43,475 nt of DNA from Spirochaetota bacterium (GTDB lineage: Bacteria > Spirochaetota > GWE2-31-10): the NCBI GenBank assembly GCA_022361115.1, contig JAKSBL010000286.1, forward strand, positions 1-43,475, in the 5' to 3' direction. Below are positions 2,359 through 15,436 of this stretch, piece by piece (within the stretch, counting starts at the first letter, position 1; each line of letters opens with the position of its first letter). Made by a program: the position numbers and the translations under genes. The notes beneath the pieces were generated by a model. The model did not search any database, was not told where the DNA came from, and saw nothing but the letters and a program-made list of their open reading frames with translations.

Positions 2359-3954
2359 ATGAAAAAAATCACATTATTCATTAGTAAAAAGAGCCGGCAA
2401 ATCACCTTTCCAGTTTTATGTCTTCTCTTTTTAATGTTAATCAGTTTTGGGCATACAAAAAAAATTTTCATTTTTATTCCATTAATCCTCCTGATCTTGA
2501 TTTATGGGATTTGTATGACATGGATTACAAAAAAAACTAAGTTTCTCCTATTAGTTTTGCTATTGATTTTGATTCTTACAGCCTATTGGTTTCGCTTAGT
2601 CAGAATGGAAAAGCATTACCAATTCAGTAAGAAACAGGTTTTTAACAGCTCTATGGTATTTGGTCAAGTAATATCTTTTCCCCAAAGAAAAAAAATGAAT
2701 ACGCATTTTATGATGAAAGTGCTCGCTGTAAAAAAAGATACCAATACAGATTATCAAAGAATTGAACCTTTTCATATTTTAGTTAAAGGAAAAGAAATCC
2801 AGGTTGAAAAAGGGGATTATCTTTGTATTGAGAAAAACCTTTATCTCCCTGTGAAAAAAATTGGGAATTTTGGGTACCGGCAATATTTAAGAAACAAAAA
2901 TATTTATGCAATGGTTCAATTAAAAAATAATCAATATAGAAAGATTTTTAATAATAGTTATCAAAACATTGAATTAAAAACAGGAAATCAATTTAGAACC
3001 CAGATTATCAGCAAACTGCGAAGTCATTTAAGAGTTGAAGCCTACAGTTTTTTGCTTTCTATTTTTTTTGGAGAAAAGGGAGAGCTGGATAAAGATTTAT
3101 TTCTTGCCTATAAAAATACAGGCATGATTCATTTATTGGCGATTAGTGGCTTACATATTAGTTTTATTGGATTACTTTTTTTTAAGTTTTTTCATTTATT
3201 GTTGTCCAGAAGTAAATCCTTTATGCTTAGTTTACTGGTTTTATTTGGGTATCTCACCTGGATTCAGCCAGCAGCTTCGAACCAGCGAGCTTTTTTAATG
3301 TATGCAATTCAAGGGCTTTATTTACTTTTAAACAGAAAAACCACTGGTCTGACCGTTTTATCTTTTGCTGGTATTTGTCTTTTATTTTTTCGGCCCTTGT
3401 ACCTATTTGATCTGGGATTTCAGTTTTCTTTTTTAGCTACAGCAGGTATTTTGATATTTGCTCAACCCCTTCAGTATTATCTTGAGAAAAAAATGTGTCG
3501 GCTGAATTGGGGCATATTATATCCTTTAGTATTAAAAGCAATCAAAGGATTTAGTGTTAGCGGATCGGCTTTTGCTGCAATTGTTAGTTTACAATGGATT
3601 TACTTTCAGCAAATTCCCTTTTTCTCATTACTGAGTTCCCTAATAATGGTTCCGCTTTTTAGTATACTATTTACCTTCTTATTTTATCTTTTGCTATTGG
3701 TAATTTTTATACCCCATTGGTTTTTGTTTCAACTGATGGATTGGTCTGTCTTCATTTTTAATCAATGCATTTTACTTTTAGATCATATACCAGCTTGCCG
3801 GATGCCTTTACTTCCGCCTACAGTCAGTCTTTTAATATATATTTTTTTCCTAGTGAGTATCAGGTTTTGTTTAAAGTTAATTGATAAAATGGGTTCTAAT
3901 TTAAAGAAAAGAAAACTTGAGAGTCAATTAAATAATATTCGATTAAGATCATAA
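2359..3954 (+). CDS. comEC: ComEC/Rec2 family DNA uptake channel (no C-terminal metallo-beta-lactamase domain)
   Basis: TGMIHLLAISGLHI and DLGFQFSFLAT competence-domain motifs; N-terminal TM segments plus OB-like region with FGYRQYL; multiple TM helices. Confidence 0.9.
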   Translation: MKKITLFISKKSRQITFPVLCLLFLMLISFGHTKKIFIFIPLILLILIYGICMTWITKKTKFLLLVLLLILILTAYWFRLVRMEKHYQFSKKQVFNSSMVFGQVISFPQRKKMNTHFMMKVLAVKKDTNTDYQRIEPFHILVKGKEIQVEKGDYLCIEKNLYLPVKKIGNFGYRQYLRNKNIYAMVQLKNNQYRKIFNNSYQNIELKTGNQFRTQIISKLRSHLRVEAYSFLLSIFFGEKGELDKDLFLAYKNTGMIHLLAISGLHISFIGLLFFKFFHLLLSRSKSFMLSLLVLFGYLTWIQPAASNQRAFLMYAIQGLYLLLNRKTTGLTVLSFAGICLLFFRPLYLFDLGFQFSFLATAGILIFAQPLQYYLEKKMCRLNWGILYPLVLKAIKGFSVSGSAFAAIVSLQWIYFQQIPFFSLLSSLIMVPLFSILFTFLFYLLLLVIFIPHWFLFQLMDWSVFIFNQCILLLDHIPACRMPLLPPTVSLLIYIFFLVSIRFCLKLIDKMGSNLKKRKLESQLNNIRLRS

Positions 3955-4047
3955 ATACTAAGGATTTTTCATTTAATATGTTTTAAGAAGATTTAAAATA
4001 ACAGCATCATTTATGTATTTACTGATAACTGTGTTAATAGGATTTTT

Positions 4048-6129
4048 TTAATGGATAGACAAAGTATAAATATTAGAATTTAAATCTATAAAATAAAGTA
4101 CATTTCCTAATTTTAGTGGCGTACATATTAAAGGGTTATTTGATTGGTTTCCTGGTATTTTTAAAAATCTTGTCTCAGTTGTTTTTAAATCATATGAAAA
4201 TAACTTGCCTTTATCCGAGCAGTAATAAATGCTATTTTCAAATAAAACTGGTTTTTTAACAAGGTAATTGTTGGAGTCAGGATTTTTATCTACTTGGATA
4301 ATAAATTGGGGGAGATCAAATGAGTTGCTGTTTAATTTATAGAATACACCATCATTTCCAATGAAATAGCAAAATGGTTTATGATAAATGATTTCTGAGA
4401 CAACTCCTGCAGGTAATTTTAAAGTTATTGAATTCTGATCATTAAAAGTGGTATCAAAACGATAAATGTTTTCAATACTATCTGCAATGAAAATATAGTT
4501 ATTTGCAAATACAGGTTTCATAAATGCCCTATGCTTTAATGGTGTAGATTGATGGGTAACAATGTTTTTATTTAAATTGTACATTGCTAATTTTTTTGAA
4601 TTAATATTATAGAAGTATAAAATATTGGGTTTTGCTTTTGTAATATATAACTGTCCACTCGTATTAAATATATTATTTGTTTTTTCCAGGCTATTTCCCT
4701 TTAGTATGTATAGAATATCATTTGCTGGAATCAGCAAGCTATCATTGTGAATTTCTGGTTTAGCCCAGTATACAGGACCATCATTGATATTTAAAAGTTT
4801 TAATAATTTTCCTTGCTTAGAAATAATAAAAACATGATTTGAAGTGCTGATTATTAAATTTTTTTGATAGATAAGGGCCGGGGAAGTTAATTTAGAGATT
4901 AAGTGGTGAGTAAATTTCCAAAGTAATTTACCGCTCTTTATGTCAACAGCAGTTAGAGATTTATTAGAATCACTAGTGATATAAATATTATTATTATCAA
5001 TTGCTAAAGATGTTTCTTTTTCATCAAGTTGTAATTGAGGATTAAATGGCAATTTACGAATTATTACCTCTTTTTTTCCTTCCTCTTCATTGTTATGAGT
5101 ACTTTCTATTCTCTGATCAATTGTTTTTTCAGTATTACTATTTGAGACTTGTTTATTATTTTCATCTTTATCATGAGATAGTGGAATGATCAGAGCCTGA
5201 TAACTTTTTTTTAATTGAAAAAGCTTTTTATCCAATTCAGCCATAATCTTTTTTTGTGTATCGGGATCATTTTGATTAGAAAAGTCAATGTTTTTGATAA
5301 ATAGTATTGTTTCCTTTAGCATAATATCAAATTTTTTCACATCACTGCTATTAATAATGATGCTTTGATCCTTAGTTAAAACGACTTTCTCATTGATAAT
5401 TTTGTTAATCTGACTATAGAGATTTTTTTTTAATAGTTCTTTTTGTATAGATTGATCAAGATTAGGCTTTATCCAGATTTTTCCTTCTATTACAGTAATA
5501 GTTGTTTCATCTATTGATTTATTAACTTCAAATTCTGTTCCAATAACATTGATGATCAATTCAGTTGTTGTTATTTTAAATAATGAACCTTTGATAAGTT
5601 TAGCTAGTCTGACCTTAATCATTCCCTTTTTTAGATAAAATGAATTATTAATTATTTTTTTATTTTTTTTCAAACGATTAATTTTTATCTCTGACAGCTG
5701 ATTTAATTCCAACCTTGATTTTTTATCAATTTCTAATTGAATTTGTGAATCATTTTCAGTATAAACTGAAGTTTTTTCTTTGATAATATCGTCTTGATGT
5801 AGTAAATATTTTTTACCCTTTACTATTTTGTAAGCTTTACCATCGATTTTTATTACCTTACACATTGAATAAAATCGATGGTAAAGAAAGGTATTTCTGC
5901 CAATTAATAAACCAATAAGTAAAATAATAATAATTGTAAAACTGAAAACAAACTGGAAAACTAGTGTTTTTCGTTGTGCTTTCTCAGACTCATGATCAAA
6001 ACGTTTTGTCATATACTTCAGTTTTATTTTTAAATTTTCAGGCATTTCATCTAAAGCTGTCTGGTTATTTAAAAGAAAATCAAGAGTTTTATCATCTAAT
6101 TTATCAATCCAGTCTTTTTTTGAAATCAT
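4048..6129 (-). CDS. FecR-domain anti-sigma-like membrane protein with C-terminal PQQ/BamB-like beta-propeller
   Basis: Short N-terminal region, one TM helix (LVFQFVFSFTIIIILLIGLLIG), FecR-like segment (LKKG...VIGTEFEV...VIEGKI), then propeller repeats (LTAVDIKSGKLLWKF, GKLFSYDLKT); ATGA overlap with the ECF sigma gene. Confidence 0.75.
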   Translation of the reverse strand: MISKKDWIDKLDDKTLDFLLNNQTALDEMPENLKIKLKYMTKRFDHESEKAQRKTLVFQFVFSFTIIIILLIGLLIGRNTFLYHRFYSMCKVIKIDGKAYKIVKGKKYLLHQDDIIKEKTSVYTENDSQIQLEIDKKSRLELNQLSEIKINRLKKNKKIINNSFYLKKGMIKVRLAKLIKGSLFKITTTELIINVIGTEFEVNKSIDETTITVIEGKIWIKPNLDQSIQKELLKKNLYSQINKIINEKVVLTKDQSIIINSSDVKKFDIMLKETILFIKNIDFSNQNDPDTQKKIMAELDKKLFQLKKSYQALIIPLSHDKDENNKQVSNSNTEKTIDQRIESTHNNEEEGKKEVIIRKLPFNPQLQLDEKETSLAIDNNNIYITSDSNKSLTAVDIKSGKLLWKFTHHLISKLTSPALIYQKNLIISTSNHVFIISKQGKLLKLLNINDGPVYWAKPEIHNDSLLIPANDILYILKGNSLEKTNNIFNTSGQLYITKAKPNILYFYNINSKKLAMYNLNKNIVTHQSTPLKHRAFMKPVFANNYIFIADSIENIYRFDTTFNDQNSITLKLPAGVVSEIIYHKPFCYFIGNDGVFYKLNSNSFDLPQFIIQVDKNPDSNNYLVKKPVLFENSIYYCSDKGKLFSYDLKTTETRFLKIPGNQSNNPLICTPLKLGNVLYFIDLNSNIYTLSIH

Positions 6130-6692
6130 GAGAAAAAATCCCTATTATTTTTTTTTAGTTCAGTTTTAAGTTTTTTTCTGGCCTTAAATAATAAGCTTTC
6201 AACAGCAACAACTGATTTATTGATGATTTGAGCGATTTCTTTTTGTGATTTATGTTCTATATATTTTAATTTAATAACTTTTTTATACTGGTCATTAAGA
6301 TTTTCCAATGCCATATTGAGCATTAGTATTTTTTCCTTTAACATTAAATCATCCAAATGATCATTAGATAAGGTTTGCTGGCCATTGGATTTCTCAATGA
6401 TTATTTTTTCCTTATACTTTTTTCGAAGGTGATCATTAAACCGCCGGGAAGCAATTTGAAATATCCAGGCTTGTAGTCCTTTGATTTTTTTTAATTTTGG
6501 AGCTGATTTTAAAACAGAATAAAATGTCTCTGCTGATAATTCTTCTGCTGCATCCTGATCTCCATTTGTTTTAATTAAAAGATAATTATAAATTTTTTTT
6601 CCATATTCTTCATATATTTTCTGAAATATTATCGGATCACGTTTTTTGATTTTTTTTAGATCGTCATCTGCAAAAAAAATAATTATTATCAT
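6126..6692 (-). CDS. ECF-type RNA polymerase sigma-70 factor
   Basis: Region 2 (DAAEELSAETF...WIFQIASRRFNDHLRK) and region 4.2 (KSQKEIAQIINKSVVAVESLLFKARKKLK); 188 aa. Confidence 0.93.
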   Translation of the reverse strand: MIIIIFFADDDLKKIKKRDPIIFQKIYEEYGKKIYNYLLIKTNGDQDAAEELSAETFYSVLKSAPKLKKIKGLQAWIFQIASRRFNDHLRKKYKEKIIIEKSNGQQTLSNDHLDDLMLKEKILMLNMALENLNDQYKKVIKLKYIEHKSQKEIAQIINKSVVAVESLLFKARKKLKTELKKNNRDFFS

Positions 6693-7750
6693 TTTTTTGT
6701 ACTATTTCTTTTTATTTTTCTTTTGAAATGAATTATATACCCTAAATCAATGGTGATGCAATGAAAAAAAGTCTGTTTTGAAAAATCGAAATTACTCCAG
6801 TTAACTAATGCATAGCCAATTTTACAGGAAAAGCCTTTTATAAAAAAACCAGTTTTAAACCCAAATAACAATAAACCACCAATATCAAATAAAAATGCAA
6901 TCCTTTTATGTTTTAAATCGCCAAACATAAATTGCATAAGTAGTAAAGTACTACCATTTGAACCTATATCATTGTTATCACCCATGTTGCTAGAATGAAA
7001 TAAAATGAGAAATCCTGAAAAACCGGAACCAAAAGCAAAATAAGGAGTAAATCCATATAAATAACCGAAACTTCCTCCAAAGGCTCCACCATTTCCTTGA
7101 ATACCAGAATACTCATTTGTATAAGTATTATTTAGTTGATAAATTCTAGTATAACATCCCAGCAAAGAAATATTTAAAAAATGACGTTTCCAGTAAACCG
7201 GATGATCATTTTCTGACATTTTTAACCGCATCATTTCATCAAAATAGCTTTTATCTACCATCTTGATATTTTGATTCATTTTTTGAGCAATGTCTTTTGA
7301 GGATTCATCAACAACCCTGAAGACATCAATTCCTAGTTCACCTGTAACGGTACTTCCAGCAACAATCTGATTTTTGAAAATATCAATTGCAGAAATCGTA
7401 ATTAAAATATGATCCTCAATTATTGTATATTTACCAATCACTATAACATCAGATTTAAGTTCCATAGCAAGTTTTTGGGCTTTTTCTTCATTAATGAAAA
7501 TCTTCAATCCTAGTGTTTCTATTTTTTTATCTATAAGAGAAAAATCAGTATACAGATACTGGCCTGTATTGACTAATTGACTGCGAAGAGCATCCCTGAG
7601 TATTCCTGAGAGGTACTCATATTCTTTATTATCATTAACATTATAAAATGGTAAAATTAAAACGGTTCTTTTAACTAGATCATCTGAGTAAAGCTGAACT
7701 GAACCTAAAATAAAGATCAGAAAAATGATTATTATTAAATATGTTTTCAT
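6689..7750 (-). CDS. Exported protein with TolB-N/CsgG/FlgO-like domain and C-terminal Gly/aromatic-rich beta (outer-membrane-like) region
   Basis: Signal peptide; VLILPFYN...YLSGILRDALRSQL...LKSDVIVIGKY...ISAIDI pattern; C-terminal alternating hydrophobic strands ending IDLGYIIHF; ATGA overlap with the sigma gene. Confidence 0.6.
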   Translation of the reverse strand: MKTYLIIIIFLIFILGSVQLYSDDLVKRTVLILPFYNVNDNKEYEYLSGILRDALRSQLVNTGQYLYTDFSLIDKKIETLGLKIFINEEKAQKLAMELKSDVIVIGKYTIIEDHILITISAIDIFKNQIVAGSTVTGELGIDVFRVVDESSKDIAQKMNQNIKMVDKSYFDEMMRLKMSENDHPVYWKRHFLNISLLGCYTRIYQLNNTYTNEYSGIQGNGGAFGGSFGYLYGFTPYFAFGSGFSGFLILFHSSNMGDNNDIGSNGSTLLLMQFMFGDLKHKRIAFLFDIGGLLLFGFKTGFFIKGFSCKIGYALVNWSNFDFSKQTFFHCITIDLGYIIHFKRKIKRNSTKK

Positions 7751-7783
7751 GTAATCTTCCCCAAAAATACTTCTTACTTGATT

Positions 7784-7809
7784 AGTCGACTCGATTTATG
7801 AAATCTTGC
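7784..7809 (-). promoter_or_regulatory. Candidate ECF-dependent promoter, copy 1 (GCAAGATTT-N13-GACT)
   Basis: Minus strand reads GCAAGATTT CATAAATCGAGTC GACT, ending 33 nt before the ATG at 7750. Confidence 0.6.
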
Positions 7810-8048
7810 CTGTTTGCGTATAGTATTTATTTGATTTAGAATTTTAAAAAAGTACCAGTTCAATGTTAATCAGGAAAGCCATTAATAAGATTATAAAATA
7901 AATTTATTAAGTAGCAAGAGTATTAATTTTTTTAAACAATTCTCACTATTTATTTTTAAAATATCTAAAAATAAATAAAGGAATTCTATCTTTTAAAATA
8001 CCTCTTAATGCTATTGTTACGAACACATTCTAATTTTGGATAGTTAAT

Positions 8049-8618
8049 TTAATGTGGAAGAACAGGTAAAATAACTTCAGGCTCATATAATTTAATATTA
8101 AAATCGATTTCAAATGTAATTTTTTCAATTTCTGGTAAAGCACTTGTATTCGTAAGAACACCAATATATAAACCCCAAACATAACCTGGTATACGAGAAT
8201 AATTAAGAAGAAGAGTTCCATCACCTTCTAATGATAAATAGCACTGATTAGTTGTATAACTAATAGAAACTAATGGATCATGACCAACTGGAAAATTACC
8301 ATCTGTAATTGAATCAACAATAATCCAAATATCAAAAGATAAGGTTCGATGCTTAATTTGTATTTGTGTGTTTTCCTTATCAAGAATAGCAAATAAATTG
8401 GGCGTACAAAGATCATCTGGTTCATTATAATATACTTGTTCTGGTAAACCATTAAAAGAAATATGCATTTCACTATTGTTTTCAATACTACAAAGTGAGG
8501 ATTTCTCAGAATTTGGTATATCTTCAAGCTTATTACCAATAAAATCACAGTTTATCAATAACAAAGAAATAAAGAATAATAGCATCCAGGTCATTTTTTT
8601 GTAAATAATATTTATCAT
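8049..8618 (-). CDS. Hypothetical lipoprotein
   Basis: Hydrophobic N-terminus ending in LLINC; AGGAG RBS upstream; 189-aa ORF, no family recognised. Confidence 0.7.
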   Translation of the reverse strand: MINIIYKKMTWMLLFFISLLLINCDFIGNKLEDIPNSEKSSLCSIENNSEMHISFNGLPEQVYYNEPDDLCTPNLFAILDKENTQIQIKHRTLSFDIWIIVDSITDGNFPVGHDPLVSISYTTNQCYLSLEGDGTLLLNYSRIPGYVWGLYIGVLTNTSALPEIEKITFEIDFNIKLYEPEVILPVLPH

Positions 8619-8712
8619 TTTATAACTTCTCCTTGTTATAAGATTTTTTTAAAAATTTGACAGGAGTAAATAAAAAAATCTTTATAATTGGTTATTTGGC
8701 TGTTATTCACTA

Positions 8713-8738
8713 AGTCTGTTTAGTAAAAAAAATCTTGC
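8713..8738 (-). promoter_or_regulatory. Candidate ECF-dependent promoter, copy 2
   Basis: Minus strand reads GCAAGATTT TTTTTACTAAACA GACT, pointing into the gene starting at 8618. Confidence 0.55.
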
Positions 8739-8773
8739 TAATTTTTTTAAAAAATTTTAGCAAGATTTTTTTT
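8725..8773. repeat. 17-bp perfect inverted repeat with 15-bp AT spacer
   Basis: AAAAAAAATCTTGCTAA (8725-8741) / TTAGCAAGATTTTTTTT (8757-8773). Confidence 0.9.
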
Positions 8774-8785
8774 GTTTCTGCGACT
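8760..8785 (+). promoter_or_regulatory. Candidate ECF-dependent promoter, copy 3
   Basis: GCAAGATTT TTTTTGTTTCTGC GACT, ending 32 nt before the ATG at 8818 (AAGGAGG RBS in between). Confidence 0.6.
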
Positions 8786-8817
8786 TTCTTTTTATTAAAC
8801 TTCAAGGAGGTGTCTTT

Positions 8818-10005
8818 ATGAGACATAATTTTAATCTTTTATTTTTATTCACTTTGTTTTGTTTATTGGTAAGCGGTTGTTCAGTTGCTGAAAATAGTGA
8901 AGAGAATAGTTATCAGACTATTGATGCTAATATTCGCAATAAGGTTAGTGATTTTGATGAAACTAGCATAATTACCGCAATTGATTCTGATGATTTCGTA
9001 GGAGAATACACGTCTATTGCAGTGAATGGTGACAATATTTATATTTCCTATTTTGATCATACAAATGGGGATTTAAAGGTGGCTAGATCAAATAATAGAG
9101 GAATTTCTTGGGATACAAAAACAATTGATTCTTATGGTACTGTAGGCTGGGATACCTCAATAACAGTTGTAGATGAAAATATTTATGTAGCTTATTATGA
9201 TTTAACCAATCATGATTTAAAGTTTGCTAAATCAACTAATGGAGGTAACTTATGGGACCCTCTTGATATTAGAACAGTTGATGAAACTGGTTATGTTGGG
9301 AAACATACATCAATAACTGCTGATCATAATTATATTTATATTTCTTATTCTGATCATACAAACAGGGATTTAAAATTTGCCAGATCAGATGACAATGGAG
9401 ATACCTGGGAATTACAAACAGTAGATTCAATAGGTGTTATAGGTACTTATACTTCTATAAAAAATGAAGGCTCAAATGTATATATATCTTATTATGATAT
9501 AACAAATAGAGATTTGAAGCTGGCTGCTTCTGCTGATGAAGGACTCACATGGGAAAGAATTATAGTAGATGGTATAGGGAATGTAGGTGCAGATACATCA
9601 ATTGCAGTAGATGAATCAGATTTATACTTTTCATACCGGGATACAGTGGGTAGAGATTTAAAGTTTGCAAAATTAACCAAAAAAGAAGGCATTTGGCACC
9701 ATATCTATGTTAAAACCATTGATTCTATAGATGATGTTGGTTATGCCACATCCATATCCTTAGAAAATAATTATGTTTATATTTCCTATTATGATCGAAC
9801 AAATGGGGATTTAAAGTTTGCAAAATCAAGAGATTGGGGTAAAACCTGGCTTCTTGGTGATATTATAGTAGTGGATTCAACAGATAATGTTGGCGAGCAT
9901 TCGTCCATAGCTTGCTACTTTTCTAATGTATATATTTCATATTGGGATCACACAAATAGAGATTTGAAGTTTGCAAAATCAGTGGATAGAGGAAGTACCT
10001 GGTAA
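8818..10005 (+). CDS. BNR/Asp-box repeat lipoprotein, seven-bladed beta-propeller
   Basis: Lipobox LVSGC; seven ~50-aa repeats VG..TSI......YISYYD.TN.DLKFAKS.D.G.TW; strong RBS. Confidence 0.85.
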   Translation: MRHNFNLLFLFTLFCLLVSGCSVAENSEENSYQTIDANIRNKVSDFDETSIITAIDSDDFVGEYTSIAVNGDNIYISYFDHTNGDLKVARSNNRGISWDTKTIDSYGTVGWDTSITVVDENIYVAYYDLTNHDLKFAKSTNGGNLWDPLDIRTVDETGYVGKHTSITADHNYIYISYSDHTNRDLKFARSDDNGDTWELQTVDSIGVIGTYTSIKNEGSNVYISYYDITNRDLKLAASADEGLTWERIIVDGIGNVGADTSIAVDESDLYFSYRDTVGRDLKFAKLTKKEGIWHHIYVKTIDSIDDVGYATSISLENNYVYISYYDRTNGDLKFAKSRDWGKTWLLGDIIVVDSTDNVGEHSSIACYFSNVYISYWDHTNRDLKFAKSVDRGSTW

Positions 10006-10111
10006 TGAAATTACAAGCTCTCGGTATAATTTTCAATACTTTATCTTATTCTCACTTCTTTTATTAAGTCTGTAGCTGTACTTGTATCCATCATTATAAT
10101 TCTAATAAAAT

Positions 10112-10158
10112 GGGCGTTTTCCATAAATAATCTTATTGGAAATCGCCCTTGATTTTTT
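10112..10158 (+). terminator. Probable terminator after the BNR lipoprotein
   Basis: GGGCGTTTTCCA (10112-10123) / TGGAAATCGCCC (10137-10148), one mismatch, followed by TTGATTTTTT. Confidence 0.5.
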
Positions 10159-10228
10159 ACTACAATTATATTTTTCAAAGAAAAATAAAAATATTATAAT
10201 AACTAAAACTTTGGAAGAAAGATAGTTT

Positions 10229-12832
10229 ATGACAATCAGAGAACATGCAGATCAAACAGAAAAGAAATTTGGTATCCGGGCAGTTGATATTCATAAATGG
10301 ATAGATGGATTTTTTGATGCAGAAAGTTTTGAGTTATTTATCAAAGGAAAAACAGGAGTTGATTTTAATCCCTATGAACATCGCAGATATCGTCATTGCC
10401 GGGAAGCATTAAAAGAGGCTTATCAGGAATTCCAGTCGAAATATAGTAAGGATCAGATTAAAGCAGTATTTGAATCTCACTTAAAGGATGATTATAACGG
10501 ATATATCCCTTGCCGCAATGATTTCGAAAATGGCCTGTTTCGGGAAAAATATCATGAAAGAGGGGATTTTCAGGATAAAGTCCTGACTTCAGTTGAATTA
10601 TCTGAATATTTCAAGGGTAAAAATTATCAAATTTCAAATAAAAATAAACAGAAAACAGATTTTAAATTTTTACTGCGGATTATTCTTCCTGTTTTAATCG
10701 CTTTGGTATTATTTTTAGGAACAGGTTTAATTTTCATCATTCCGGTTTATTATGATATTATGATGAATAATAAAAAAATCCTGATTAAAGAACTGGTCAA
10801 TACAGCTGCCAGTTCTATAAGTTATTATATACAAGAAGAAAAAAATCATAATTTGACCAGGCAGGAAGCCCAAAAAATGGCTCACTTAGAAGTAGAAAAA
10901 ATGCGTTATGGAGTTGATGGAAAAGATTACTTTTTTATAACGGACATGCACCCTTTTATGATTATGCATCCCTATCGAAATGATTTGGTAGGTGAGGATT
11001 TAAATCATTACAAAGACAGTGAAGATAAAAGCGGGAAAAAAATCTTTGTAGAGTTTGTTAAAATTGTGAAAAATTATCAGGAAGGCTATCTTGAGTATTG
11101 CTGGCAATGGATGGATGATACAGATCAAAAAGCATTAAAACTATCTTATGTGAAGGGTATTCCTGAATGGAACTGGATAATAGGAACCGGTATTTATATT
11201 AACGATATAGAAGAAGAAATTAATGCATTTACTGATAAATTACTTCTTGTTTTTAGTATTATCTCTTTAATGATTTGCTTGGCTCTCTTTTATGTCATCA
11301 TGCAGAGTAAAAAAATTGAAACAAATCGGCAATACTTTGAACTCGGTTTAATTGAAGCAAAAAATCGGTACCGGGCATTAGTTGAATCTGCCAATGAAGG
11401 TTATATTCTGGAAATCGGCGGAGAGCATGTTTATTCCAACCATACTTTACAACGTTTGTTAGACTATAATGAAGAAGAATTGACTGAGCTAAAACTTTTT
11501 GATTTATTAGATAAAGTCTATCCTGCTAATTTAGATCCCAAAGAATATTTAACAAAATTATATCAGTCCTTTGTAGAGCCAAAAAAGTTTGAAGCCAGAT
11601 TAATAACGAAAGGGGGTTATCCAATTGATTTAATTATCAGTGTTTCTAATTTGTTTTTTTCTCAAAAAAATGGACATGTTATTTCGTTTAGAGAAAAGCA
11701 ACAAAATAAAGAACATATATTTTCCCGGTTAGCCCATTTCCCTTTATTAAAAAGCAGTTTTAATTCTAAGCAAGACCATTCTGTTTTAAATATCCAATCA
11801 ATAGTGAAAAATATAATAGAAAGCAATGAATCAACTCAGATAATCAAGTTATTAAACCAGCTGCCTCAACAGGTTTCTCATATGCTGAATACAGGGTTAG
11901 ATCCCCAAATCATTAGAAGTTATGTGAATGAGAGCTATCAAGCAGCAAGTCAAAAATTTATAGAAATAGCAGTCAAAGCATTGGGACAACCACCAGTAAA
12001 ATTTTGTTTTTTTGCCTTAGGCAGTAGTGCAAGAGGAGAAATGACTCTGTTTTCTGATCAGGATAATGCTCTGGTCTATCAGGATGTTTCTGTAGCAAAT
12101 AAAAATGAAGTTGAAAAGTATTTTTTAAAGTTGTCATCTAATGTTAATCAAAATTTAGATCAAGCAGGGTTTCATATTTGTCCAGGTGGATTAGTTGCTT
12201 CAAACAGCAAGTGGTGTTTAACCCTCTCTCATTGGCAAGCCTTGTTTCAAGACTGGTTTGAAGCAATGAATCCTGAGGCTTTTTTAAAAATTAATGTTTT
12301 TGCAGATACAAAATATGTTTATGGTAACCAGGAACTATTAATCAATCTGCAGGAAAATTTTAGAAATTATTCTCAAAATAATACCCCTTTTTTTAATCTT
12401 TATGTGAATAATTCCTTACTTTATAAAGTCCCTATGAATTTATTAGGGGGAATCAAAACAGATAAAAAAAAAAAAAAAAAAAATATCAATATTAAAGCCT
12501 GTTTAAAACCATTGGAAATTGGTTCCAGGATTTATGCATTAAAAAATGAAATCACCGCAACCAGCACAAGCGACCGTTTATATGCATTGCTGAACAAGAA
12601 AAAAATCTCATCTAATCTTTATCAAAATAGCATCTATGCTTTTTATTATCTCTGGAATTTGCGATTTTATAATCAAATTATTTTGAATGCTGATCTGGAG
12701 AAATTAAATGATGAACTGGATTTAAGTCGGCTTTCTGAAATTGAAGTTGAGAATTTAAAAACAGTTCTAAATCAAATTCAGAATTTTCAAAACAGGTTAA
12801 ATAGTGATTTTATTGGCAGAGTAAGAATATAA
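10229..12832 (+). CDS. Membrane sensor-nucleotidyltransferase: His-rich N-terminal domain, TM, single Cache 2, TM, PAS, DUF294 nucleotidyltransferase, DUF294_C
   Basis: Cache signature RYG..GKDYFFITD....MIMHPY..DLVG...GYLEYCWQW...KLSYVK.IPEWNWIIGTGIYI between two TM helices; RYRALVESANEG PAS start; pol-beta-type motif LGSSARGEMTLFSDQDNALVY (G598, S599, D610, D612), CPGGLVASNSKWC and the C-terminal NIK...RIYAL...TSTSDRL segment typical of DUF294 proteins. Confidence 0.85.
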   Translation: MTIREHADQTEKKFGIRAVDIHKWIDGFFDAESFELFIKGKTGVDFNPYEHRRYRHCREALKEAYQEFQSKYSKDQIKAVFESHLKDDYNGYIPCRNDFENGLFREKYHERGDFQDKVLTSVELSEYFKGKNYQISNKNKQKTDFKFLLRIILPVLIALVLFLGTGLIFIIPVYYDIMMNNKKILIKELVNTAASSISYYIQEEKNHNLTRQEAQKMAHLEVEKMRYGVDGKDYFFITDMHPFMIMHPYRNDLVGEDLNHYKDSEDKSGKKIFVEFVKIVKNYQEGYLEYCWQWMDDTDQKALKLSYVKGIPEWNWIIGTGIYINDIEEEINAFTDKLLLVFSIISLMICLALFYVIMQSKKIETNRQYFELGLIEAKNRYRALVESANEGYILEIGGEHVYSNHTLQRLLDYNEEELTELKLFDLLDKVYPANLDPKEYLTKLYQSFVEPKKFEARLITKGGYPIDLIISVSNLFFSQKNGHVISFREKQQNKEHIFSRLAHFPLLKSSFNSKQDHSVLNIQSIVKNIIESNESTQIIKLLNQLPQQVSHMLNTGLDPQIIRSYVNESYQAASQKFIEIAVKALGQPPVKFCFFALGSSARGEMTLFSDQDNALVYQDVSVANKNEVEKYFLKLSSNVNQNLDQAGFHICPGGLVASNSKWCLTLSHWQALFQDWFEAMNPEAFLKINVFADTKYVYGNQELLINLQENFRNYSQNNTPFFNLYVNNSLLYKVPMNLLGGIKTDKKKKKKNINIKACLKPLEIGSRIYALKNEITATSTSDRLYALLNKKKISSNLYQNSIYAFYYLWNLRFYNQIILNADLEKLNDELDLSRLSEIEVENLKTVLNQIQNFQNRLNSDFIGRVRI
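12464..12483 (+). repeat. A20 homopolymer inside the coding sequence
   Basis: GAT-A20-TATC encodes DKKKKKKNI; the frame is currently intact. Confidence 0.9.
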
Positions 12833-12931: not shown

Positions 12932-15436
12932 ATGAACAAAAAAGTAATATTAATCATTCTTGTCTTTTTTTTAAAATTATCTATTTTTGCAGCCAATGGA
13001 CCAGGGCAATTAGGGGCAAAATATACTCCTGAGGAAACCACTTTTTCTATTTGGTCTCCTGATACCAGCAATGTAGTCCTGCTGTTGGACGGAGTGGAGT
13101 ATCCTTGTTCCAGGATTTCTGACTTTGATGGTTACACTGATATCTATTCTGTTACTGTTTCCGGGGATCGGAAAGACCAGGTTTATCAATTTAAAATAAA
13201 TGGGCAATCTGTTCGAGATCCTTATGGAGTCATGTTATCAGAAGCTGAATCTAATTTTAATGTAGTAATGGATTTAGAGGAAACAAATCCTGATAATGGC
13301 TGGTATGATCGCCCTGATTTAGTAGAAAGGGAAGACGCTGTTATTTATGAAATACATATTCGGGATTTTACTATTGATGAAAATTCCGGGATTCCAACTG
13401 ATAAAAAAGGGAAGTTTCTGGGCATGGTTCATTCCGGCAGTACTTATAATGGGTTAACTACAGGAATCGATCACTTAATTGAATTAGGAGTTACTCATGT
13501 TCAAATTCTCCCTTTTTATGATTTTGCTACCCGTCATTATAACTGGGGATATGATCCAGCAAATTATAATATTCCTGAAGATCAATATGTTTCTGATCCC
13601 GATGATTCGGTAAAAAGGATAAAAGAACTAAAAACCATGATCAATGAGTTTCATAATGCTGGTATCAGAGTCATTATGGATGTAGTTTACAATCACACTT
13701 ATATGCCATTGGAAAAAGATGGGCCGATTCCAGAATATTTACAGGACTATATTGATGTTTTTGAACCAATTACCAGAGATTATTATTTAACTGACAGTAA
13801 TGGAGATCTCATTGATTTGTCTGGCTGTGCCAATACTCTGGATACTCAAAATGCCATGGTGAACCGCTTTATCAGGGATTCTTTAGAGTACTGGGTTGAG
13901 GAATTTCATATTGACGGCTTTCGTTTTGATCTCTTTGGTACAATGATGTACCAGGCTGTGGATGAGTGGGCCGATTATTTAAATAGCCAATTTGCCGATG
14001 CAAATTTGCTGATCTATGGAGAACCCTGGCAGGGTACTGGTGACAACACATTAGGTAGTAATAAAGTCCGGCTAGGTAAAATGCCTTTATTGGCTGATTC
14101 ACATGTAGGCGCCTTTAATGATCAGTTTAGACAAGCCATTAAAGGGAGTTCCGACAATGGAGATTGGAATGGTTATATGTGTAACGAGAGTGACGCCTAT
14201 GGTGTTGAGCAAGGAATTCGAGGCTCTTTATTGGAAGTGAAGAGTAAAACTGCTGTTGATGATTGGAGTGACCGCTTTGCATATGATCCGGAACAGACCA
14301 TAAATTACGCTGCAGCTCATGATAATCTTTGTCTTTGGGATAAACTAATTGCTGCAGGCCATGAAGATAATTATGGAAAAAGAATCGTGAAATTTGTCAA
14401 TGGGATATTAATGACTTCCCAGGGAATACCTTTTATCCATGCTGGAGATGAAATGCTGCGAACTAAATTAGGGGATGATGCGAATTGGGAATATGCAGAA
14501 AACAGTTATAAGGCCCCGGATGAGTATAATAAAATTCGCTGGCAATGGAAAGAAAGCAATCTGGAGGTTTTTGAGTATATAAAAGCATTAATTAGTTTAA
14601 GAAAATCTCATCCGGGATTAAGATTTAACACCTGGGATGAGATCAATAATAATATGACTACAGAAGTTGTGAATAATGGAAAGGTCATTATTTCCCAAAT
14701 CAATGCAGCAGCCAATAATGATCAATGGAGTAAAATTCTGGTGATTTATAATAGTGATAATAATTATTGGTACCAGCTGCCGTCTGGTAACTGGTATATT
14801 GCTGTAGAAAAGGAAAATGGTAATGCCAATGATATTTTGGCTGGTGAATGGGTGGAAGTGGAAGGGACTTCGATTACTGTATTATATCAGCTTCAGGAAG
14901 AATGGGAGCAAGCTTATCTAAGAAGTACTGAAAATAATTGGGGGACAACAAATATGGAAAAAGTTGGTCCCAATACCTGGGAAGCAACCGTTACTTTTAC
15001 AGATACTGGGGATAATCCCCCCCGTTTTAAAATCGATCATTATGGAGATTGGACAGAGAGTTATCCCAGTGTTGATTATGTTGTAGAAGCCAATCAAACC
15101 TATAAAATTACTTTTCATGACATTACAAAAGAGGTAAATGCTGAACTGGTTGATCCTGTAACTTCAGTGACCATTTATTATTCAGAATTTGAATATGCTT
15201 CATCCTATATTTTACATTGCTGGAATGGATTAAGTGAAGACTATACCATGACTTATGATGGACCATTTAATAATATCCATTGGTGGAAGATAACTTTAGC
15301 TAATGTACCAGCTAATTTTAATTTTTGTTTTACGAATAGCAATGGGAACTGGGATGGTGTAAACCGTTTATATTCTGAACAGGGTGAGCATTTATATATC
15401 TATTATGGGGATAGCACAGTCTACACATCCAGGTAG
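12932..15436 (+). CDS. pulA: Secreted type I pullulanase-like GH13 enzyme with N-terminal CBM48-like and C-terminal starch-binding-like modules
   Basis: Signal peptide; TTFSIWSP, IYEIHIRDF, YNWGYDP (type I pullulanase signature), MDVVYNH, GFRFDL, YGEPW and AHDN catalytic motifs; AAGGAG RBS. Confidence 0.88.
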   Translation: MNKKVILIILVFFLKLSIFAANGPGQLGAKYTPEETTFSIWSPDTSNVVLLLDGVEYPCSRISDFDGYTDIYSVTVSGDRKDQVYQFKINGQSVRDPYGVMLSEAESNFNVVMDLEETNPDNGWYDRPDLVEREDAVIYEIHIRDFTIDENSGIPTDKKGKFLGMVHSGSTYNGLTTGIDHLIELGVTHVQILPFYDFATRHYNWGYDPANYNIPEDQYVSDPDDSVKRIKELKTMINEFHNAGIRVIMDVVYNHTYMPLEKDGPIPEYLQDYIDVFEPITRDYYLTDSNGDLIDLSGCANTLDTQNAMVNRFIRDSLEYWVEEFHIDGFRFDLFGTMMYQAVDEWADYLNSQFADANLLIYGEPWQGTGDNTLGSNKVRLGKMPLLADSHVGAFNDQFRQAIKGSSDNGDWNGYMCNESDAYGVEQGIRGSLLEVKSKTAVDDWSDRFAYDPEQTINYAAAHDNLCLWDKLIAAGHEDNYGKRIVKFVNGILMTSQGIPFIHAGDEMLRTKLGDDANWEYAENSYKAPDEYNKIRWQWKESNLEVFEYIKALISLRKSHPGLRFNTWDEINNNMTTEVVNNGKVIISQINAAANNDQWSKILVIYNSDNNYWYQLPSGNWYIAVEKENGNANDILAGEWVEVEGTSITVLYQLQEEWEQAYLRSTENNWGTTNMEKVGPNTWEATVTFTDTGDNPPRFKIDHYGDWTESYPSVDYVVEANQTYKITFHDITKEVNAELVDPVTSVTIYYSEFEYASSYILHCWNGLSEDYTMTYDGPFNNIHWWKITLANVPANFNFCFTNSNGNWDGVNRLYSEQGEHLYIYYGDSTVYTSR

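Follow-up and report, generated by a model that had tools for sequence, protein, structure and literature searches.

A bipartite motif that occurs three times on a contig of a Spirochaetota bacterium (GenBank assembly GCA_022361115.1, contig JAKSBL010000286.1) is very probably the autoregulatory promoter of the adjacent ECF sigma factor (6126-6692, minus strand), driving the sigma's own operon and two flanking lipoprotein genes. This reading comes from sequence comparison of the window, i.e. the entire 43,475-nucleotide stretch of DNA analysed, with related genomes. The operon, on the minus strand, consists of a FlgO-like gene, the sigma gene in second place and a gene for a FecR-propeller protein, joined by ATGA overlaps. 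Its first gene (6689-7750) encodes an exported protein of 353 aa with hydrophobic residues 1-23, an N-terminal domain of the FlgO/TolB-N/LpoB/PelC type (about residues 23-180; Pfam FlgO, 1.9e-06) and a low-confidence C-terminal region. The sigma has 188 aa and matches Pfam Sigma70_r2 and r4_2, with no region 3 hit; like many sigmas of its subfamily, it opens with a short hydrophobic run (6660-6692, minus strand). The predicted anti-sigma of 693 aa (4048-6129, minus strand) combines a membrane helix (residues 54-83), a FecR domain (122-218) and a C-terminal PQQ-type beta-propeller. The flanking genes encode a 189-aa predicted lipoprotein (8049-8618, minus strand; lipobox-like Cys by inspection), which has no Pfam or NCBIfam match and mostly unnamed Atlas neighbours, and a 395-aa predicted lipoprotein with BNR/Asp-box repeats (8818-10005, plus strand; weak BNR matches), a homologue of which lies beside the orthologous sigma at locus L067 of a relative. 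A scan of nine window proteins, with every neighbour of the operon among them, shows no TonB-dependent receptor family of Pfam. Near this module are an exported GH18 chitinase-like protein with CBM5/12 (120-1997) and a pullulanase-like protein (12932-15436), both without the motif.

A preliminary description of this DNA had reported three copies with identical spacing at 7784-7809 (minus strand), 8713-8738 (minus strand) and 8760-8785 (plus strand). A pattern search of the window returned precisely these as exact matches, and none of 100 window shuffles contained any exact copy. The genome-wide pattern search that it proposed gave the same three as the only exact matches in the assembly (5.3 Mb, 735 contigs). 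Because the pattern was picked post hoc, an extra null was applied, namely any 9+4 bipartite word with at least five G/C that occurs three times. No such triple word was present in any of 300 samples of shuffled intergenic DNA, and 3 of 39 real 1.1-kb tiles of the window had one; one of these is the present motif and the other two lie in mostly coding DNA. The two CGACT copies end 33 and 32 nt before an ATG, as described, and the distance for the AGACT copy is 94 nt. All three copies do point into genes, with the refinement that the copy at 7784-7809, said to aim at the sigma operon, enters the FlgO-like gene and reaches the sigma as the second.

We predict three promoters from these copies. 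P1 (GCAAGA-N15-CGACT; 7784-7809, minus strand) would serve the FlgO-like/sigma/FecR operon from a start at A7775 with a 25-nt leader, and P2 (8760-8785, plus strand) the BNR-repeat lipoprotein gene from A8794 with a 24-nt leader. P3 (8713-8738, minus strand), weaker and with an AGACT -10, would serve the 189-aa lipoprotein gene from A8704 with an 86-nt leader; it is likely, with less certainty than for the motif as a whole, that P3 is a promoter of the adjacent sigma. The copies of P2 and P3 are arms of a 24-bp, 92% inverted repeat (8725-8773), which holds their back-to-back -35s, T-tracts and a shared A/T tract, and are thus not independent. In RNA folding the leaders are unremarkable, and the only strong fold is at the 8720-8780 palindrome (z -6), outside which the predicted transcripts begin. 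No terminator-like sites were found within 3900-10300. The P3 leader also contains, on the plus strand, a perfect TTGACA and TATAAT 20 nt apart (8657-8688), a gap that exceeds sigma-70 spacing. This pair overlaps a second inverted repeat (8640-8651/8671-8682), whose dyad is off-centre in the spacer, and its spacing resembles that of MerR-type promoters.

The sigma belongs to a subfamily with a narrow distribution. Relatives 38-49% identical are found in seven other genomes of the same order, and in a search of 401 genomes of the phylum at 1e-30 all subfamily matches fell within the order. The protein search falls off steeply after 44 proteins, the subfamily is a clade in the tree (96/92), and the window sigma, L067 and four others form a sub-clade (100/99). 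Among the 25 NCBIfam families listed, only the general sigma-70 model scores above its cut-off. The closest orthologue, at L067, is 68% identical. Of 21 distinct relative loci, 16 have a FecR-type gene after the sigma, and 8 have a FlgO-like homologue next to it, with three more likely by alignment. One subfamily clade (L043, L045, L047 and L050) has neither an adjacent FecR gene nor a clear upstream site, and its sigmas may be controlled by other means.

Motif discovery upstream of orthologous sigmas, as the preliminary description had suggested, recovered a motif in the same register. The exact pattern is absent from 17 relative genome loci, and a variant in that register is plain there. When the 150-nt regions ahead of 19 related sigma genes were searched de novo, in a set that contained neither the window nor L067, a single motif emerged, CG.ATGA-N15-CGA(C/T), with a log-likelihood of 110 vs 70-84 in eight shuffles at equal effort. 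Thirteen of the 19 relatives have a clear site, 6-73 nt ahead of the start, in addition to L067; the six that do not include four sigmas without an adjacent FecR gene. A matrix was trained on the 13 with a site; L071 (a duplicate of L049) and L052 (a partial sigma) were not used. The six loci outside the matrix include L043 and L048, whose start coordinates in the search missed the codon by a few bases. In leave-one-out runs the same site was regained in all 13 cases (12.6-22.2 bits). A scan of genome contigs with the single sigma protein returned only distant ECFs (23-36% identical), which were used as controls together with distant metagenome hits; 1 of 62 such controls reached at least 12 bits. 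On this assembly, the relatives-only matrix ranks P2 13th (15.8 bits), P1 19th (15.4 bits) and P3 about 1798th (7.1 bits) among 10.6 million positions, and at least 15 bits are reached in 3 of 3428 gene-upstream regions. At L067, GCAAGAATA-N12-CGACT lies ahead of the sigma and GCAAGATTT-N12-CGACA ahead of a lipoprotein pair that includes the BNR homologue. The core, and the fuller form of the motif, is therefore GCAAGA-N15-CGAC. The context of P3 aligns with the lipoprotein promoter of L067; the gene that follows this promoter shows no homology to that of the 189-aa lipoprotein. GCAAGAWT-N13-CGAC gives eight matches in seven other genomes vs five in reversed controls, and the one inspected lies inside an open frame, so the family does not share these exact letters.

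These sites behave as promoters would. Across 22 loci, in which 18% of the DNA is non-genic, matches of at least 14 bits number 24 in intergenic and one in genic DNA, and 23 of the 24 strong sites point into a gene (10 of 11 for those outside the training set). Second sites resemble the site of their own sigma in the elements (93 of 108 letters alike vs 73 when permuted, p 1e-4) and not in the spacer (42 vs 39, p 0.29), with p-values that overstate the effect because sites and sigmas are kin. A pyrimidine-purine step at -2/-1 or -1/+1, which lies outside the matrix, is present in 24 of 26 sites vs 7 for the reverse step, and the three window sites all have TA at the predicted start (at -1/+1 for P1). 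Published criteria for ECF promoters include 16-18 nt from -30 to -13 and such a start step (Todor 2020, PMC7776599, as far as its available text goes); the motif has 16 nt. Together with a small sigma of regions 2 and 4 and a rigid bipartite motif kept in relatives, these are traits of ECF autoregulation. A-rich tracts lie immediately upstream of the -35. Several subfamily relatives have leaders too short for a ribosome-binding site. Leaderless sigma mRNAs in relatives were considered as a general claim, which was dropped, as three have their first ATG before the predicted start.

The inverted repeat raises the question of whether the 8725-8773 palindrome is itself the functional unit, as an operator at which a dimeric transcription factor controls the divergent lipoprotein genes. 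Two of the copies do form the 92% repeat, and the family motif is partly self-complementary (TCG...CGA), with one L037 site scoring on both strands. However, P1 and both GCAAGA-N15-CGAC sites of L067 have no palindromic partner, and the aim into genes, the start-site step and covariation with sigma residues are at odds with an operator, which we regard as very unlikely. If the copies are promoters, the palindrome would be two of them placed back to back around a common A-rich tract.

The covariation concerns sigma residues and promoter bases. Residues were mapped to E. coli RpoE numbers by alignment, in which the identities of RpoE residues other than Trp73 are partly what we take them to be. 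Trp73, which is named in PMC7776599, served as the anchor. All 44 subfamily sigmas have Asp at RpoE-84, and in the available part of Dataset S3 of Todor 2020 (PMC7776599) Asp84 favours CG, then AG, at -13/-12. The CG of the motif is consistent with this table, and the AG of P3 is the second-best pair. Only one of the sigmas with sites, L042, has Asn80; both of its sites read CGT, and its genome has a third site, GCAGGA..CGTC, ahead of a lipoprotein. In the remaining 24 of 26 sites, -11 is A. Where residue 172 is Ser or Thr, -34 is G in 17 of 17 sites, and where it is Gly, in 2 of 5. Other residues deviate from the published measurements: at Asn172 loci all three sites have G at -34, where Todor's Asn mutant prefers A, and Arg176 sigmas mostly have C at -35 and not the consensus G, which is off the published table. 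For Glu171, the accessible text of Todor 2020 (PMC7776599) gives only a weak G preference (0.33, SD 0.14), and Lys at RpoE-171 selects C at -31 in the same source. The independent events behind these correspondences are few: the Asn80-to-CGT switch counts once, and the three sigmas with Gly172 form one clade. The other ECFs found in this genome, three full-length and one fragment, all retain Lys171, and an AAC-type motif of their own lies ahead of two of them. The ECF at G000:C493:17608-18201 has TGAACC-N16-CGACT as its own candidate promoter, and that at G000:C628:3817-4392 has TGAAAC..GGTCT.

The preliminary description spoke of a local regulon, which holds for this genome and not for the subfamily. 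With one mismatch allowed, the 11-base core has 24 sites in the assembly, and the only intergenic ones are the three in the window. The assembly, in 735 contigs, is 85.8% complete, and other targets or another sigma may therefore be missing from it. The family pattern is scattered in family f3 (15, 9, 4 and 3 matches vs 0-1 in controls), and across genomes it has 32 matches in 8 that bear the subfamily vs 6 in 12 others. Five of those six are one repeated sequence in G004, which is without a subfamily sigma; four near-identical 34-nt matches there, on contigs C122, C134, C183 and C209, are likely a repeat. Genome G014 has two classes of site that mirror two of its own sigma sites, the CGCATGA class being partly one repeated element. 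Behind its seven CGCATGA-type sites (L120, L121, L124, L126, L127 and L128) come AT-rich leaders that contain short internal repeats, and after two of the sites a gene follows at about 290-300 nt, one matching HU-like DNA-binding families; these sites may belong to a multicopy element that an ECF controls. In relatives, most target genes encode exported proteins, including GH5, GH8, a cadherin-like protein and a secretin. The secretin gene (G016 L141:359-2694) has a CGATAGA-type site 91 nt ahead.

The incomplete assembly also bears on the possibility that a different sigma reads the promoter, either the C493 ECF, whose gene is itself preceded by a CGACT -10, or a sigma that the contigs do not contain. 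Against this, the -35 of C493 is TGAACC, the protein keeps Lys171, and the motif tracks the subfamily across genomes in the counts just given; we therefore hold this even less likely than an operator. Least probable among the alternatives is that local duplication in AT-rich DNA left these copies behind and that the genes are under sigma-70. Two 10/12 sigma-70-like sites do lie upstream of the sigma operon, the P3 leader has the TTGACA/TATAAT pair, and TATAAT-like letters directly follow CGAC in several relatives. However, sigma-70-like sites are at chance level (41 vs 44) with none in 8619-8817, the elements are kept while the spacers differ, and the shuffles gave no triple word; a basal sigma-70 promoter would in any case be compatible with an ECF one. 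The proposal of the preliminary description, that the adjacent sigma acts on the motif as its target promoter, is thus favoured by footprinting, L067, the start-site step and residue-base covariation, all of which are comparisons of sequence.

How does this promoter relate to known systems? The preliminary description had called the motif novel, which overstates the case, because TGCAAG (-35) and CGACA (-10) have already been predicted for three subgroups of ECF218, s41, s28 and s33 (Casas-Pastor 2021, PMC7826278, available part of the supplement). Compared by promoter and description and not by sigma kinship, these three have a nearly identical promoter and, as here, a single-pass anti-sigma in +1. 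In that part of the source, however, ECF218 comes only from Actinobacteria and has an RskA-like or unnamed anti-sigma without a FecR-propeller, whereas the homologues of the present sigma are labelled Spirochaetes and its anti-sigma has FecR and a propeller. The -35 TGTGATTTT and -10 GCGAAT(C/A)AT of ECF22 resemble the subfamily consensus (..TGATTTT, CGA), but ECF22 has a four-helix anti-sigma and the window -35 is GCAAGA instead (PMC7826278, in the part available); ECF225 is given as AAACTTTTT/CGACT in the same supplement portion. It had also been stated that the motif departs from the common ECF consensus. This is right for the non-AAC -35, but the spacing is standard and CGAC is the -10 of the autoregulatory promoter of Bacillus subtilis SigX, which also has a T-tract beside its -35, as do P2 and P3 (Gaballa 2018, PMC5758882, available sections); SigX promoters differ in having an AAC-type -35 and come from another phylum.

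A single-pass FecR-like anti-sigma in +1, as here, is described for ECF229, ECF239, ECF240, ECF242 and ECF243 and for Leptospira LIC_12757/LIC_12756 (PMC12155086). As in the window proteins scanned, a TonB receptor is absent from the spirochaete ECF242 subgroups, and LIC_12757 is autoregulated, but its -10 is CGT, unlike the CGAC of the window. The motifs of ECF240 and ECF242 are described as not conserved, that of ECF229 is ATTC and that of ECF239 (A/G)ACA/TAC, and in the text covered neither a C-terminal propeller nor a FlgO/TolB-N partner is described for any of these FecR-coupled systems. The locus therefore shares with FecI-like ECF239/240/243 the single-pass FecR-like anti-sigma in +1 and lacks their TonB-dependent receptor in +2. 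In the literature covered, neither the motif nor the subfamily is described and no paper joins GCAAGA with ECF, sigma factor and promoter; Datasets S1/S2 of Todor 2020, outside this coverage, may hold the motif.

By analogy with known ECF biology, the membrane FecR-propeller protein would hold the sigma in an inactive state until it is freed by a signal that lies outside the inner membrane, upon which RNA polymerase with the sigma would start at A7775, A8794 and A8704 and the autoregulatory copy would provide positive feedback. For the input we consider the FlgO-like protein. Its N-terminal domain models well, with a fold that matches TolB-N, LpoB, PelC and FlgT; a barrel or membrane location for its C-terminal half, at a pLDDT below 50, is not claimed. 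A complex model of this domain with the periplasmic part of the anti-sigma scores 0.73 vs 0.00 for the best of three controls, above a mark that 116 of 157 solved complexes attain, as do 2 of 215 mismatched pairs, with contacts that agree at least 80% between runs and a partner pLDDT of at least 81. This pass may stem from likeness, because both folds are combined within a single chain in TolB itself. Interface conservation is 0.43 vs 0.43 for the rest on the propeller and 0.56 vs 0.49 on the partner side. The FlgO-like domain is predicted to dock on the anti-sigma propeller, and the protein could pass on the signal from there. As a guess from the exported targets, the signal may be a carbohydrate or the state of the envelope.

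Autoregulation and small local regulons are already well known in principle, and the small-regulon class makes up 47.8% of ECFs (Todor 2020, PMC7776599, accessible text). The promoter alone is of this well-known kind; what is new is a subfamily with a FecR-propeller anti-sigma, a predicted TolB-N-fold partner and diversified non-AAC promoters. We tentatively suggest, at somewhat less than even odds, an order-specific, three-part form of envelope signalling without a TonB receptor, in which a TolB-N/FlgO-fold protein docks on the propeller of a FecR-type anti-sigma, like TolB split in two. The sigmas would then be an unclassified ECF group of paralogues with orthogonal non-AAC promoters (GCAAGA, CGAATGA, CGCATGA, CGATAGA, GCAGGA..CGT), and Arg/Asn at RpoE-80 a switch for -11 that is absent from the published table. 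The locus offers a bench-ready sigma-promoter pair with predicted starts from a lineage known here from assembled genomes only. The paralogues amount to a natural experiment on how ECFs recognise their promoters, chiefly through Arg vs Asn at RpoE-80 and the loss of Arg171, and are a possible source of orthogonal switches. Finally, through the predicted partner a FecR-type anti-sigma might receive its input without a TonB receptor, which would bear on the spirochaete ECF242 subgroups too.
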